The notes under the pieces: generated by a model | Told to the model about the DNA's origin: nothing | Seen by the model: the letters and a program-made list of their open reading frames with translations, nothing else | Database searches by the model: none | Shown here: positions 3,001-57,985 of the stretch, piece after piece | How the letters are laid out: every line of letters starts with the position of its first letter | How positions within the stretch are numbered: the stretch's first letter is position 1 | Source of the DNA: a virus | Lineage: Duplodnaviria > Caudoviricetes | Direction: 5' to 3' (one strand) | Virus record (IMG/VR): IMGVR_UViG_3300017991_000056 | Location: 1-64,000 of that record | DNA: 64,000 nucleotides | Position numbers and translations under genes: made by a program

Positions 3001-6000
3001 TCCCAGGGGCTTCGTGGTTTCCAGGGCAACCAGGGACGGCAAGGCGTTCAGGGTCTCCGTGGTTTCCAGGGAAACCAGGGACGGCAAGGCTGGCAGGGTT
3101 CGCAGGGCGAGCGCGGGCTCCAAGGGAATCACGGTCTTCAAGGTGTTCGTGGCTGGCAGGGAAACCAGGGCGCCCAGGGCTGGCAGGGTCTTTGGGGCTC
3201 CCAGGGCAATCAGGGCTCTCAGGGATGGCAGGGAAATCAGGGCTGGCAGGGCGCTCAGGGCGCTCGTGGCCTTCAGGGGTGGCAGGGCTTCCAGGGCAGG
3301 CAGGGAGTTCAGGGTCCTCAGGGTGTTCGTGGTCTTCAGGGAAACCAGGGGGTCAGAGGCTTTCAGGGCTGGCAGGGCTGGCAGGGCTGGCAGGGCGTCC
3401 AGGGGAATCAGGGTTTCCAGGGCAATCAAGGTGTCCAAGGCGTTCGTGGCTTCCAGGGAAATCAGGGAGTCCGTGGCTTCCAGGGCAATCAAGGTGTCCA
3501 AGGCGTTCGTGGCTTCCAGGGTTGGCAGGGTCCTCGTGGCCTCCAGGGCAATCAGGGCTGGCAGGGTGATCAGGGTGTTCAAGGTGTCCAGGGCAACCAT
3601 GGAAGGCAGGGCGTCCAGGGCTGGCAGGGAACAGGTCTTCAGGGACCTGGTGGAGTTACGGGGCCGGTAGGAGATCAGGGTGCCCAGGGAAGCCAGGGTG
3701 TCGAGGGGACGCAGGGGAACCAGGGCTGGCAGGGCCTCACGGGTCCCCAGGGCTACGAGGGTCCTCAGGGTCCGGGTCCGGCCGGCCCCCAGGGAGTCCG
3801 TGGTTTCCAGGGCAATCAAGGCCTCCGCGGGTTCCAGGGCGTTCAAGGCGTCCGCGGGCCTCAGGGCAATCAGGGTGTTCAGGGAGTCAGAGGTTTCCAA
3901 GGCCCTCAGGGCAATCAGGGCTTCCAGGGCTCGCAGGGCGTTCGTGGCCTCCAGGGAAATGAGGGAGTCCGTGGCTTCCAGGGTTTCCGAGGCTTTCAGG
4001 GGAATCAGGGCCGGCAGGGGCTTCAGGGAGTTCAAGGAGTTCGAGGCCTCCAGGGCAACCAGGGCTGGCAAGGCGTTCGGGGAGTTCAGGGGCTTCGTGG
4101 CTTCCAGGGCGTTCAGGGCAGCCAGGGCTGGCAGGGTGTTAAGGGCTGGCAGGGCAACCAGGGAGTTCAGGGCGTTCAGGGCTGGCAGGGCGACCAGGGT
4201 TTCCAGGGCGACCAGGGTTTCCAGGGTTCGCAGGGCGTTCGAGGTTTCCAGGGCGTTCAGGGGTGGCAAGGTGTTCAGGGTTCGCAGGGTCCTCGGGGCT
4301 TTCAGGGAAACCAAGGTTGGCAAGGTGCTCAGGGCCCTCGGGGCAACCAGGGCGTTCAGGGGGCTAGGGGCCTCCAGGGCTGGCAGGGCTGGCAAGGAGC
4401 CCAGGGTCCGCAGGGTCTCCGTGGCAACCAGGGCGCACAGGGCCCTCGGGGCAATCAGGGCTTCCAGGGTTCGCAGGGAGTTCGTGGCTTCCAGGGCAAC
4501 CAGGGAAGTCAGGGAATCAGGGGCCTCCAGGGCAACCAGGGCTGGCAGGGCGTTGGGGGGACTCAGGGCCTCCTGGGCTTCCAGGGCAACCAGGGAAGCC
4601 AGGGCTGGCAGGGGAATCAGGGCCTTCGTGGTTTCCAAGGGAACCAGGGAGCTCAGGGTTCTCAGGGGCTTCGAGGGTTCCAGGGCAACCAGGGAAGCCA
4701 GGGCTGGCAGGGCGCTCAGGGTCCTCAGGGCCTCCGGGGCGTCCAGGGTTTCCAGGGTCCTCAGGGTCTAAGAGGCTTCCAGGGATGGCAGGGCAACCAG
4801 GGCGTTCAGGGCAACCAGGGCGAGAGAGGTTTCCAAGGTGTCCAGGGCGTTCGTGGTTTCCAGGGCGACCAGGGTTTTCAGGGCGACCAGGGTTTCCAGG
4901 GTAATCAGGGCGCCCAGGGCGAGAGAGGTTTCCAAGGTGTCCAGGGCGTTCGTGGTTTCCAGGGCTACCAGGGTTTCCAGGGCGACCAGGGTTTCCAGGG
5001 TAATCAGGGCGCCCAGGGCGAGAGAGGTTTCCAGGGTAATCAGGGCGCCCAGGGCGAGAGAGGTTTCCAGGGCAACCAGGGCGCCCAGGGCCTCCGAGGC
5101 TTCCAGGGCAATCAAGGTGCCCAGGGTCTAAGAGGCTTCCAGGGATGGCAGGGCAACCAGGGCGTTCGTGGTTTCCAGGGCAACCAGGGCGTTCAGGGCA
5201 ATCAGGGTGTCCAGGGTCTAAGAGGCTTCCAGGGTATCCAGGGAGTTCAGGGGCTTCGTGGCTTCCAGGGCAACCAGGGCGTCCAGGGCCTTCGAGGCTT
5301 CCAGGGATGGCAGGGCAACCAGGGTATCCAGGGAGTTCAGGGGCTTCGTGGCTTCCAGGGCAACCAGGGATGGCAGGGTTGGCAGGGGGATATTGGGTTC
5401 CAGGGAGTTGATGGCGTTCAGGGCTGGCAGGGCGTCCAGGGCTGGCAGGGAACAGGTCTTCAGGGACCTGGTGGAGCTACGGGGCCGGTAGGAGATCAGG
5501 GTGCCCAGGGAAGCCAGGGTGTCGAGGGGACGCAGGGGAACCAGGGCTGGCAGGGCCTCACGGGTCCCCAGGGCTACGAGGGTCCCCAGGGTCCGGGTCC
5601 GGCCGGCCCCCAGGGCGCTCAGGGATGGCAAGGTGTTCGCGGCTTCCAGGGTGTTCGTGGGCTTCAGGGTGTCCAGGGCAACCAGGGAGTGGATGGGTCG
5701 CAGGGCGCTCAGGGATGGCAGGGTCTTCGCGGCTTTCAGGGTGCTCAGGGCAACCAGGGCTGGCAGGGCGTTCGGGGAATTCAGGGTTTTCAGGGCCTTC
5801 GAGGTTTCCAAGGTTGGCAGGGCGTTGGGGAGACCGGTGTTCAGGGTTCTCAGGGTCCGCAAGGCGTTCGTGGTTTTCAGGGCAACCAGGGCAACCAGGG
5901 CTGGCAGGGCAACCAAGGTTGGCAAGGCGTTCAGGGTGTTCATGGCTTCCAGGGCTGGCAGGGCGCTCAGGGCTTCCAGGGTCTGCAGGGTCCGCAGGGG

Positions 6001-55041: not shown

Positions 55042-55419
55042 ATGAACAAGACGACGACTGTGGTAATGGCTCCCGGCATTGAGCCCGAGCAGTTGGAAGG
55101 ACTGAAGGTCGAAATCGAGAAGTCCATGGAGGACGCGGCCCATGTTGTCTGCGTCCCTTACGTGTTCAGCGTGGAGCAGATGGAGCTACGGCAAGACGAA
55201 ATGGCGATAATGGCTCCCGGCATTGAGCCCGAGCAGTTGGAGGGACTGAAGGTCGAAATCGAGAAGTCCATGGAGGACGCGGCCCATATCATCTTTACCA
55301 ATTACGCGTTCAGCGTGGAGCGCATGGAGCTGCGGGGCGAAGGCGATCAAGGACCTGAACGAAAACCCAGTGTGGATGAAATGAGAGAAAAGATTGCGCG
55401 AGCGTTTGAAGGAGGTTGA
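55042..55419 (+). CDS. Hypothetical protein made of two 48-aa tandem repeats
   Basis: GAGGAGG RBS; 144-bp period duplication; TTGGGA-16-TATTAT promoter-like site at 54962-54989. Confidence 0.7.
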   Translation: MNKTTTVVMAPGIEPEQLEGLKVEIEKSMEDAAHVVCVPYVFSVEQMELRQDEMAIMAPGIEPEQLEGLKVEIEKSMEDAAHIIFTNYAFSVERMELRGEGDQGPERKPSVDEMREKIARAFEGG

Positions 55420-55630
55420 TGAGGATCGGCGCGGATGCGCTTATCCTGGTGCCTCGGAGATGCGGGAAGCATTGGAGGCCGTCGACAAGGATTTGGCTTC
55501 CTGTCGGGCTTCTGACAAGGGGCCTGCGTATCTGGGGCTTTTGATGGCGGTTCAGGACTTGTTGGCGGAGTTTCGCATTGACGGGTTCTGTTTGGAGATG
55601 ATGGCGAAGGGCCATGCGCGTCCTGGATGA
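55394..55630 (+). CDS. Hypothetical protein
   Basis: Short ORF in a run of coupled small genes; start uncertain. Confidence 0.45.
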   Translation: MRERLKEVDEDRRGCAYPGASEMREALEAVDKDLASCRASDKGPAYLGLLMAVQDLLAEFRIDGFCLEMMAKGHARPG

Positions 55631-55877
55631 CGTGGAGTGGGTCGACAGCATCACGGACGATCACGATCCCAACATGTGTCCGTCCTGCGGCGGTTTCCAG
55701 AGCCATCGGCACTCGCAGGAGAACGTCGGGCACAGGGAGGGCTGCGAGCTTGTCGGGGCGAGGCGCGAGCTGTTCCGGCAGGCTGTGGACGTCGCGTCGG
55801 GGATGCCGGACGGGAATCTTTTTCTCAACATGGTTGTCGGGCTGCATCTGGCGAGGCCGGTCCCGAGGTTCGGATGA
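55614..55877 (+). CDS. Small Zn-binding hypothetical protein
   Basis: CPSCGG...GH.EGCEL. Confidence 0.55.
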   Translation: MRVLDDVEWVDSITDDHDPNMCPSCGGFQSHRHSQENVGHREGCELVGARRELFRQAVDVASGMPDGNLFLNMVVGLHLARPVPRFG

Positions 55878-55943
55878 GGGGAGGCGAGGAGGGCGGCCAC
55901 TGTTCCTTGCACGGCTGCATGAGGGCAATCTGCGGCTGCGAAT

Positions 55944-56198
55944 ATGACTAGTGGGATCGTCGAGACCAGGATGGTGCGTCTTCGTGACCGGGACGTCGAG
56001 GTGTCCTTCCGCGGGGACGGCAGGGGATCGTGGAAGATATCCATGGTGGGCGGGAGGAGGTTTCGGTCGGCGTCCAGGTTCGAGTCGTTGGGGTCGGCGG
56101 TCGTCGGGGTGCAGATGCTGGACTGGGAGTTCCGTGGGGGTCGCGACGACGGGGAGGTTCTCTCCGTCGGGGAGGTTCTCTCCGTCGATGACGCATAG
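55944..56198 (+). CDS. Hypothetical protein
   Basis: ATG ORF of 84 aa. Confidence 0.45.
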   Translation: MTSGIVETRMVRLRDRDVEVSFRGDGRGSWKISMVGGRRFRSASRFESLGSAVVGVQMLDWEFRGGRDDGEVLSVGEVLSVDDA

Positions 56199-56214
56199 CG
56201 TAGGAGGTGGCCGG

Positions 56215-56601
56215 ATGTCAACGAAGCGGAAGCAGGACAAGAGGCGCGCCCGCGCCAAGAGCGTGGTCAAGGCGAAGAACAGGCTGAAGGCGAAGCCGAG
56301 GCCGAGGTTCTATCTGGAGGCGGACCTTCCCGGGGGCGTCGGGTGGAAGAAGGTCATGGCCTTCAGGAAGATGGAGGACGTGGACGCCTATGTCGAGTCC
56401 GTCGAGGACATCAGGAGGAGGAATGCCTCCGAGATCGTGAGGGGGCGCGTGGTCATGGCCTCGACTGGGCGAGTGGTGGCGGTGATCGAGCCGCACGAGA
56501 TCGAGGGGCCGGAAATCCTGGGGGCTTCCGGGCATGTCCGGGGCCGAGGGAAGAAGGAAAATGCCGAGGGGGCTTTGGAAAAGGAGGCCGAAGGTGTATA
56601 A
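56215..56601 (+). CDS. Basic hypothetical protein
   Basis: TAGGAGGT RBS before ATG 56215 (3' part of the listed 55951 ORF). Confidence 0.65.
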   Translation: MSTKRKQDKRRARAKSVVKAKNRLKAKPRPRFYLEADLPGGVGWKKVMAFRKMEDVDAYVESVEDIRRRNASEIVRGRVVMASTGRVVAVIEPHEIEGPEILGASGHVRGRGKKENAEGALEKEAEGV

Positions 56602-56602
56602 T
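56575..56602 (+). promoter_or_regulatory. Sigma70-like promoter of the RNA operon
   Basis: TTGGAA-16 bp-TATAAT (56597-56602). Confidence 0.6.
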
Positions 56603-56697
56603 GTCCGTGAGAGGGCGACGGTTTCCCAGAGCTTCTTTGAGAAAATCTTCTCGCCGCGTGGAAAACCGTCCTCTTTTGGCAATATGGTTGGTGAGCG

Positions 56698-56711
56698 AGT
56701 TCTTTGAAAAT
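56698..56711 (+). promoter_or_regulatory. boxA-like antitermination element
   Basis: AGTTCTTTGAAAAT resembles the rRNA-leader boxA; a weaker copy GCTTCTTTGAGAA lies at ~56631 inside a leader stem. Confidence 0.6.
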
Positions 56712-56720
56712 CGAATGAGA

Positions 56721-57028
56721 CAGCGTTCCTGGCTCGGGGTGCCGTTCTGAGTGCAACGAAGCCAGGGGGTCTGGGAGAGAGGACGCGCACCCCGGCGGCT
56801 AGCGTCCAAGTAGCGAATCGAGCTGCGCCATAGAGCGTGGCCGCCCCTTCGGGAGGGCTGGCGAACGGAACGGCGGGATCGGGCTCTGCGAAAAGTGGGC
56901 ATGCCGAAGCGAGGCAGGTTGCCGGTAGGCGAGAGCCACGCCGGAATCGTACGTGGCCCATGACCGAGCCTCCGAACGAAGGGTTCAAGGGTGGACATGG
57001 AGAAGGACGCTCCGAACCAGGGACGCTG
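56721..57028 (+). ncRNA. Unannotated ~308-nt highly structured RNA
   Basis: Ends pair over 20 bp (56721-56740 with 57009-57028; G-U pairs and one mismatch); many nested helices with UUCG and GAGA tetraloops; no credible CDS. Confidence 0.65.
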
Positions 57029-57042
57029 GAGAATGAACAAGA

Positions 57043-57313
57043 TTTTCCGGCACCGGCCCGACCCGGACAGCTCCGGGCTCAGGGCGGTGAGCGCGAAAGG
57101 GGTCCTCTAGTAGGGATCGGGACAGCGATGCGCGGTTTGAGTCCGTCGCCCGAAGCACGCATGGGCAAGCGTACCACGATCGGGACAGCGATGCGCGGTT
57201 TGAGTCCGTCGCCCGAAGCACGCATGGGCAAGCGTACCACGACCGAACGCGGGTTCCGAGTACGACGCGTCGTCACTCTCGGACAAGGCCGAGGCGGGCG
57301 GGTTGCCGGGATT
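57043..57313 (+). ncRNA. Second unannotated structured RNA domain with a duplicated T-loop-like module
   Basis: TTCCGGCACC..GCCCG pairs with CGGGC.GG.TGCCGGGA; several internal hairpins. Confidence 0.5.
57115..57240 (+). repeat. Perfect 63-bp tandem duplication
   Basis: 57115-57177 is identical to 57178-57240. Confidence 0.95.
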
Positions 57314-57318
57314 AACTT

Positions 57319-57713
57319 GGGGGCGAAATGGTATCGACTGGCGCGGCTGAGCTTGAGACTGCATGTGGAGGATGACCGTTGGCCTCCTGAATCATCGGTC
57401 GCAGAGACAACTGCAAAAAACATTCTTTCCTTCCCTGGTCGGCCTCGGCTGGCCATCGCTGCCTGAGAAGGCGGCGCGGGTGTCCCTGCCTGACGCCGAT
57501 AGGGGTCGGGGGCAACGACATCGGTGGACAAGCCATGGAGAGACATGCTGACGAGGAGCACGGAAAGACGTCTCTGGCAGCCTGGAAAGACGGGACGGGG
57601 CCTGCCGACGGGGCCTGAGCCGGACTAGACATCCGGCAAGCCTTCGGCTAAGCATGTAGATGTCCGAGGGACGTCCGTTCAGGACCCGGGTTCGACTCCT
57701 GGCGCCTCCACCA
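57319..57713 (+). ncRNA. ssrA: tmRNA; tag ORF 57413-57466 encodes AKNILSFPGRPRLAIAA*
   Basis: 5' GGGGGCGAAATGGTATCGAC and 3' GACCCGGGTTCGACTCCTGGCGCCTCCACCA; acceptor stem with G3-U wobble; tag ends in Ala-Ala-stop. Confidence 0.95.
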
Positions 57714-57834: not shown

Positions 57835-57880
57835 ACTTTTAGTACCGTAGGTCGCAGGTTCGATTCCTGCCGGGGGTGCC
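57835..57880 (+). pseudogene. 3' half of a tRNA (possibly Lys-UUU)
   Basis: CTTTTAG loop remnant, AGGTC variable loop, GCAGG-TTCGATT-CCTGC T arm and acceptor 3' strand CGGGGGTGCC; no 5' half. Confidence 0.65.
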
Positions 57881-57951: not shown

Positions 57952-57985
57952 TGGCCGTCGGTTCGCCGACGGCCATTTTTTCTTT
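57952..57985 (+). terminator. Intrinsic terminator ending the RNA operon
   Basis: TGGCCGTCGG-ttcg-CCGACGGCCA followed by TTTTTTCTTT. Confidence 0.9.

Follow-up and report, generated by a model that had tools for sequence, protein, structure and literature searches.

Phage tRNA and tmRNA clusters often carry orphan RNAs, and to our knowledge none of these has a known job. GOLLD and ROOL are large non-coding RNAs of unknown function that occur in phage and prophage tRNA neighbourhoods, and both are at least twice the size of the element described here. RNAC and RNAD of phage T4, with approximately 120-140 nt each, are much shorter than this element. They are reported as orphan stable RNAs in a phage tRNA cluster with roles that are unknown (PMC3014915). 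The manA RNA (RF01745) is a phage-borne structured RNA (Weinberg et al. 2010, PMC2864571) for which cage assemblies are reported in a preprint (10.64898/2026.07.01.735769). A bacterial system with a comparable layout is the leader of the rRNA operon, described as having boxB-boxA-boxC antitermination signals together with a leader-trailer helix (PMC10250234). The boxA consensus is given as GYTCTTTAANA, with the C at position 4 being critical (10.1101/091223).

The element that we investigated belongs to the known kind of orphan stable RNAs in phage tRNA clusters, with an unusually clear rRNA-style frame. Similar to RNAC and RNAD, it is a phage non-coding RNA beside tRNA-type genes, but its partner gene is a tmRNA. 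It is phage-borne like manA; however, it ends in a 25-bp stalk around a variable centre, and its three invariant blocks are not shared by the manA consensus. Compared to GOLLD and ROOL, it lies in the same type of neighbourhood, although it has no Rfam match and no evidence of an intricate conserved interior. Judged by comparison of two phage sequences, it is a real, conserved, uncatalogued and rare phage RNA element heading a tmRNA operon, and most likely a stable RNA that is set off by an rRNA-style leader-trailer stalk.

The window, i.e., the whole stretch of 64,000 nt that was analysed, is the first 64 kb of an IMG/VR record of 133,403 bases rated 39% complete, and codes for terminase, portal and major head protein. 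The major head protein shares 68% identity with its counterpart in LR745208.1 (a 485-kb uncultured phage), 48% with that of Tunturiibacter phage Tunturi_5 and 37% with that of Bacillus phage G. By these relatives and a GC content of 60-70%, the phage is a GC-rich jumbo phage of the phage-G type. Values of GC3 are 0.86-1.0 in the flanking genes, and the periodicity is gone from ~56500 to ~58100. The protein-free stretch here is ~1.4 kb long and contains a promoter-like site, a hairpin, a boxA-like site, the element, a spacer, the tmRNA, a tRNA-Arg and a terminator. The features, with the gene directly upstream and the parts of the element included, are as follows.

56215-56601, + strand: gene of a small basic protein (128 aa), directly upstream, called on the basis of GC3 periodicity
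56575-56602, + strand: promoter-like site of the sigma-70 type, TTGGAA-16-TATAAT, 10 of 12 positions matching
56617-56670, + strand: leader hairpin from the centroid fold, boxB-like by position only
56699-56709, + strand: boxA-like site GTTCTTTGAAA, followed by a conserved ATCGAAT to 56716
56721-57028, + strand: non-coding RNA element, flagged by the original prediction
56721-56752, + strand: 5' strand of the stalk (P1 and its extension)
56747-56763, + strand: block 1, CTGAGTGCAACGAAGCC, 17 nt identical in the second phage; it begins in the uppermost part of the stalk and continues into the junction
56778-56807, + strand: block 2, AGAGGACGCGC, identical in the second phage, with the hairpin GGACGC...GCGTCC
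56808-56952, + strand: variable centre, 145 nt versus 153 nt in the second phage
56965-56979, + strand: block 3, CGAGCCTCCGAACGA, identical in the second phage
56990-56995, + strand: conserved GGTGGA
56997-57028, + strand: 3' strand of the stalk
57029-57318, + strand: spacer or 'second domain' of 290 nt, outside the conserved element
57319-57713, + strand: tmRNA (Rfam, 107.2 bits, and ARAGORN), tag AKNILSFPGRPRLAIAA
57757-57833, + strand: tRNA-Arg(CCT) (Rfam and ARAGORN)
57952-57975, + strand: intrinsic-terminator-like hairpin of 10 pairs followed by TTTTTTCTTT, closing the non-coding operon

The tmRNA and the tRNA-Arg are the sole tRNA-type genes of the 133-kb record. The original prediction had the RNA begin right behind a promoter and a boxA, and both signals are indeed present, with TTGGAA-16-TATAAT at 56575-56602 and GTTCTTTGAAA at 56699-56709; the element starts 119 nt past the -10 box and 11 nt past boxA. 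One promoter-like site was found versus 0.2 expected in shuffles, and the boxA-like core of the window is unique in the 133-kb record. The boxA-like sites of the window and of the second phage (GCTCTTTGACA) each agree with 10 of the 11 consensus positions, C4 included, where the consensus is gamma-proteobacterial. The covarying 25-pair stalk that starts 11 nt past boxA is a helix of the leader-trailer type. The locus thereby shares with the rRNA operon leader a promoter, a hairpin, a boxA-like site, a helix made of the flanks of a non-coding RNA, and an untranslated operon with tRNA-type genes. It differs in that the enclosed RNA has ~250 nt, is not rRNA, and is carried by a phage.

The second phage was reached through the methyltransferase-like protein (433 aa) encoded downstream, which has 34 relatives in a large protein collection, the closer ones being on contigs of up to 56 kb. 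We aligned 24 of these 34 relatives (A1) and used the alignment as the basis of the IMG/VR and metagenome scans. The scan returned one IMG/VR locus, L002, whose methyltransferase-like protein is 59% identical, and 17 metagenome loci, one of which (L003) is the L002 contig again. Thirteen of the 16 other metagenome loci were scanned for RNA families, with the shortest three (L006, L016 and L019) left out; the scan gave four tRNA hits and no tmRNA. In L002, a homologue of the element lies at 1549-1851, directly upstream of the tmRNA of that contig (1897-2311), and a tRNA-Met at 3061-3136 is preceded by TTGGAA-16-TATAGT. The gene order there is a homologue of the small basic protein, the boxA-like GCTCTTTGACA-ATCGAAT, the element, and the tmRNA. 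The gap between element and tmRNA is 290 nt in the window versus ~45 nt in L002. In L002, no consensus promoter was found ahead of the element and behind the small basic protein gene, whose final codons overlap with the boxA-like site, so the L002 element may be transcribed by read-through from the mRNA.

Globally, the two elements are 54% identical and the neighbouring tmRNAs 51%. The identity is distributed unevenly: the core flanks reach 79% and 71%, the strands of the stalk 58-65% and the centre 42% (over alignment columns 76-245), and three blocks, 17, 11 and 15 nt long, do not differ at all. By comparison, neither the leader nor the spacer of the window matches the L002 contig significantly (best E-value 0.13), and no homologue of the leader hairpin was found there. 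Since the flanking proteins are approximately 35-60% identical, a distance at which unconstrained non-coding DNA would be unalignable, the element is under selection.

In the original prediction, a helix of 20 bp closes the RNA (56721-56740 with 57009-57028). In the window, 19 of these 20 positions pair, while 56733/57016 is a C/A mismatch; the G-U pairs that had been mentioned number three, next to 16 Watson-Crick pairs. When the same helix is placed on L002, 18 of the 20 column pairs form, although nine carry a different base on at least one side. L002 tests these first 20 pairs independently, since the prediction had drawn on the window only. RNAalifold gives a stalk of ~25 pairs (56722-56752 with 56997-57027) with 50 of 50 cells paired over the two sequences. 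Both partners changed in six pairs and a single partner in five, the one-sided changes always being to or from G-U. Slid controls, where the 3' partner was moved by 1-3 columns, had 35-45% of cells paired and zero double changes. The ~25-bp closing stalk is hence supported and covarying, where covariation stands for a single pairwise comparison between the two known members, which come from syntenic regions. Contigs from sequencing runs provided no population variation for a pairing test, since the two runs that span 55258-57144 have 0 differing letters and two more span parts of it; no RNA run was listed among the runs that hold the sequence.

Two inverted repeats of ~25 bp bounding ~250 bp, with GAGA on both outer flanks in the window, would also be expected of an element acting at the DNA level, such as a MITE-like insertion or a protein-binding site, in which case the RNA fold would be incidental. 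The mismatches argue for RNA. Over all 30 opposed columns of the stalk in both sequences, we counted 47 Watson-Crick pairs, six G-U, three A/C and four other combinations, so that G-U exceeds A/C by 6 to 3. The folding energies of the + strand are -145.2 (window) and -140.2 kcal/mol (L002) versus -129.1 and -129.5 kcal/mol for the - strand, an advantage of 16 and 11 kcal/mol, respectively. Both the excess of G-U over A/C and the strand advantage suggest an RNA transcribed off the + strand and speak against a DNA inverted repeat. Furthermore, the 133-kb record holds the element only once, no comparable repeat flanks it in L002, and the position between boxA and tmRNA was kept in both phages while the flanks diverged beyond recognition. 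We therefore regard a DNA-level element as very improbable.

Compared to shuffles, the 308-nt element folds at -143.6 kcal/mol with a z-score of -2.24 (3 of 100 shuffles as good), and the L002 element has a z-score of -3.29 (0 of 100). The full extended stalk, when enforced, costs 11 kcal/mol relative to the MFE structure in the window and 1.3 kcal/mol in L002; the MFE structure of the window prefers a 9-bp helix between GCCGUUCUG and CGGAACGGC. A further 9-bp hairpin, formed by the 5' strand of P1 with the region past block 1, was found in both sequences. It was rejected as not unusual because 505 of 2000 and 192 of 2000 shuffles matched it.

A multi-junction interior with many nested helices was part of the original prediction, and this part is not supported. 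When the stalk is removed, the z-scores of the interior against dinucleotide shuffles are +1.09 (window) and +1.24 (L002), and those of the centre +0.16 and +0.01, while both tmRNAs have z-scores of -2.12 and -1.53 in the same folding test. With the interior at shuffle level, the z-score of the whole element comes from the stalk. The complementary strings listed for the nested helices are all present and most of them are paired in the MFE structure; folding beyond chance, however, is not seen at an interior z-score of +1.09, and most of the listed helices have no counterpart in L002. The exception is GGACGC/GCGTCC, the only listed helix with a clear L002 counterpart (GACGC/GCGTT), where the hairpin reads GACGC-GCCTA-GCGTT and has a shorter loop. 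The helix GCCGTTCTG/CGGAACGGC is a perfect 9-bp match but competes with the covarying extension of the stalk. The predicted GGCTC/GAGCC helix fails in L002, where GGCTC does not occur, while GAGCC is invariant. Likewise, the hairpins listed with UUCG, GAGA, GAAUCGA and GAAGCGA loops lack aligned counterparts in L002.

The RNAalifold structure of the interior has 39 pairs, nine of them with double changes, but it is circular as it was derived from the same two sequences. Matching helices between both sequences returned, besides P1, dozens of equally good candidates. A structure-aware alignment of the centre gave z-scores of -0.26 and +0.56; the positive control on the tmRNA interior gave 0.27, hence the test has no power. 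With a StrAl-like alignment and a Sankoff-like aligner, block 3 came out in the wrong place or the interiors were unstable. At 62-65% GC, chance yields many nested helices by eye, and the closing helix alone survived testing.

Above the stalk lies a short invariant core that is probably unpaired. The CCTC of block 3 could pair with the GAGG of block 2, and the GGT of GGTGGA may pair with the GCC of block 1, where both partners are invariant and the pairings are without covariation. Several by-eye readings were dropped. They comprise a sarcin-ricin-loop mimicry of GAGAGGAC, T-loop readings of blocks 1 and 3 and RNase P CR-like readings, for which the elements did not come in a fitting order. 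A pairing of block 3 with the T arm of the tmRNA was dropped as well, being not above background.

The element is non-coding. Long open reading frames overlap it on both strands, which is expected at 62-65% GC and is the only feature that a protein-coding region or a gene remnant would account for. The GC of the codon positions shows no periodicity, and none of the three long ORFs over the element (two antisense, one sense) has a Pfam or PHROG match. The two antisense ORFs have no protein similarity to the L002 ORF on the matching stretch (best E-value 0.16), i.e., there is no conservation at the protein level. Gaps of 1, 2, 4 and 5 columns in the alignment with L002 break every frame. A coding origin can be set aside for practical purposes.

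The original prediction also had no signature of RNase P, SRP, 6S or group I and proposed ROOL, GOLLD, OLE and raiA for comparison; the Rfam 15 search agrees, with no match to any of the eight at E-value ≤ 10. At gathering threshold, the tmRNA and the tRNA are the only hits in the window. At E-value ≤ 10, the region 56300-57400 has three rows, none inside 56721-57028, with Y-type and group II RNAs also absent. The same threshold in L002 yields 21 rows, and the only one touching 1549-1851 is tmRNA_permuted (1826-2040, E-value 6.2, 16 bits versus a cut-off of 47 bits), which at the 3' end of the element is at chance level. In the literature that was searched, an RNA located ahead of phage tmRNA genes is not described. 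A catalogue of csRNAs is described as containing structures of 29-151 nt from IMG/VR 3 (PMC10690425), and a partial overlap with the element is possible.

The element might nevertheless be a very divergent, GC-rich member of a described family. The main candidate would be a manA-like RNA, with RNase P-like and Y-RNA-like RNAs also possible; manA and the element both have a purine-rich GAGUG towards the 5' side and a CCUCC towards the 3' side, a weak resemblance. The manA model RF01745, a multi-hairpin consensus of 192 positions, found nothing at E-value ≤ 10 in the window region, L002 or the 133-kb record, whereas the same model scored 169.6-184.1 bits in three of five cyanophage genomes used as positive control (syn9 gave none). 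In addition, the three invariant blocks are all absent from the manA consensus, the element of the window has no RNase P, SRP, 6S or Y-type row at E-value ≤ 10, and the sole L002 row is far under its gathering score. Membership in a described family is accordingly improbable in our view. In this context, the proposal of a new or compact large structured RNA class stands in so far as the element is non-coding, conserved and outside Rfam; an ornate interior as in GOLLD or ROOL is not supported, and the 'new class' amounts to two members.

We consider the element as a phage-specific non-coding RNA module of ~300 nt that is the first unit of an rRNA-operon-style untranslated transcription unit, a reading to which we give about an even chance. 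The host RNA polymerase would read the operon under Nus-factor (boxA) antitermination, which by analogy would keep Rho from stopping the untranslated transcript. The stalk would act as a helix similar to that of the rRNA leader and trailer and insulate the module. By the same analogy it could offer an RNase III site, by which an RNA of ~250-300 nt would be freed from the tmRNA precursor. The freed RNA may then act in trans via the invariant blocks 1-3 above the stalk, to which a protein or an RNA of the translation apparatus would bind as to a platform, with the variable centre being filler. We take these blocks, which adjoin the upper end of the stalk on both strands, as the probable working part. 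Observations counted against the module are the membership of two, the interior at shuffle level, the centre with 42% identity, the cost of 11 kcal/mol for the stalk in the window, and the possible read-through in L002.

The same frame may instead belong to a cis-acting leader of the tmRNA precursor, where the stalk would be an RNase III entry and an insulator, or an aid to tmRNA folding, as in the rRNA leader, and the enclosed 250 nt would have no role of their own. The element is directly upstream of the tmRNA in two of two members, the boxA and leader-trailer layout is that described for a processing signal (PMC10250234), the L002 element stands behind a protein gene and has no recognisable promoter of its own, and the interior has neither a folding signal nor a conserved centre, all of which speaks for a leader. 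However, a plain RNase III stem requires neither a loop of 250 nt nor invariant blocks of 17, 11 and 15 nt, and the element is self-closing. Complementarity between block 3 and the tmRNA ranks only 125th of 294 and 153rd of 289 among the 15-mers of the element in window and L002, respectively. The distance to the tmRNA also varies from ~45 to 290 nt. This variation, together with the background-level complementarity, makes an independent module somewhat likelier than a tmRNA leader, and we hold the leader as a possible but doubtful explanation.

Sequence scans covered IMG/VR, metagenomes and 185,579 species genomes. IMG/VR scans anchored on the methyltransferase-like protein, on the upstream AAA ATPase and on terminase found nothing. 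With DNA patterns, the 14-mer of block 1 matched at least 115 stretches, block 1 with block 2 matched 5 viral and 95 genome stretches, the 17-mer of block 1 two stretches, and the block 3 pattern six stretches. A two-sequence nhmmer profile on 134 and then 233 loci found only the stretch of the window and L002, L003 and L108, with the next E-value at 0.53, and it found nothing on six loci of the block 1 17-mer and block 3 scans. In GenBank phages, blastn gave nothing or chance hits inside genes, and tblastn gave nothing for the methyltransferase-like protein or for the small basic protein. LR745208.1 and Tunturi_5, the nearest relatives by head protein, have neither a tmRNA over the cut-off nor a match to the element. 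The element family is rare, or too divergent for exact-word scans.

The protein encoded directly upstream may be a protein partner of the element, for which its neighbouring position in both phages, which are syntenic here, is weak evidence. In its model (pLDDT 75.8), an Arg/Lys-rich N-terminal helix is followed by a small beta-alpha-beta domain. It has no Pfam or PHROG match. Protein searches returned three relatives, which were aligned as A4; relatives sit on the short contigs P0038 (692 nt) and P0039 (1,320 nt), and the L002 homologue is at the corresponding place (1064-1543). The model has no Foldseek match at E-value ≤ 0.001, the best Z in VIA is 5.0, and against Atlas only unnamed clusters were found, with TM values of 0.40-0.45. 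In a further, unlikely reading, the element would provide the RNA subunit of a small phage ribonucleoprotein that would be new. Its invariant core, carried on the long stalk, would be bound by this Arg/Lys-rich protein, and the particle would target the translation apparatus along with the tmRNA and tRNA of the same transcript, e.g., by docking tRNA-like RNAs, by processing them or as a decoy for a host factor that attacks them.

To the orphan RNAs of phage clusters, the element adds a GC-rich family with a clear anatomy that consists of a boxA-like site, a long covarying stalk and a short invariant core. Should RNase III cut the stalk and the boxA ahead of it be functional, the phage would copy the whole logic of the host rRNA operon to make stable RNAs of its own. 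Should the small basic protein or a translation factor bind to the core, this would be a first handle on the job of such RNAs. Outside the element, the 290-nt spacer holds a perfect tandem duplication of 63 nt (57115-57240) and has a folding z-score of +0.33, and the 3' half of the tRNA is duplicated between the tRNA-Arg and the terminator.

The conserved RNA, a non-coding element of about 300 nt closed by a long stalk, lies between the same two genes in the window and in L002, the contig locus of a related phage that holds its only homologue:

Window 56215-56601; L002 1064-1543: small basic protein gene, directly 5' of the element in both phages
Window 57319-57713; L002 1897-2311: phage tmRNAs
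Window 57029-57318, + strand: spacer ("second domain") that separates the tmRNA from the element
L002 2328-2852: region 3' of the tmRNA, with a promoter and a LAGLIDADG homing-endonuclease gene

The two tmRNAs have an overall identity of only 51%. The tags that they encode, AKNILSFPGRPRLAIAA in the window and AKDIVEFPGLQARAA in L002, are related and unusual. The upstream protein of the window is very basic (128 aa) and has a long N-terminal helix rich in Arg and Lys. Two more relatives of it were found, both on short metagenome contigs, and there was no family match in Pfam or PHROG and no fold match (Foldseek E <= 0.001, VIA Z > 5.0).

The spacer looks like a lineage-specific, recently duplicated segment outside the conserved RNA. 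It contains a perfect 63-nt tandem duplication (57115-57240) with a T-arm-like CGG-TTTGAGT-CCG, its folding was no better than that of shuffled sequences (z of +0.33), and no homologue of it was found in the L002 contig.

In the leader, between the promoter-like and boxA-like sites, other contigs join onto a 33-nt piece (56655-56687) in two sequencing runs, and the summed depth is roughly doubled in the bin 56661-56811. No second copy of the piece occurs within the 133-kb record; it seems to be repeated elsewhere in the same community or in a portion of the phage beyond that record. The promoter-like layout TTGGAA-16-TATA(A/G)T is common to the window RNA operon (56575-56602) and the L002 tRNA-Met gene (3018-3045) and may be a promoter type common to the stable-RNA genes of both phages.

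Immediately 3' of the L002 tmRNA is a strong promoter, TTGACA-17-TATATT, which belongs to the next gene, the LAGLIDADG homing endonuclease (Pfam E of 5e-07), and beyond that gene the final ~20 nt of the tmRNA occur once more. This order of own promoter, endonuclease gene and repeated tmRNA end suggests that an endonuclease cassette was inserted at the tmRNA 3' end. On the window side, the 3' half of tRNA-Arg has a 34-nt copy with 79% identity at 57847-57880, 14 nt past the tRNA; this copy is possibly what remains of a tRNA, or else a scar from old attachment or recombination.
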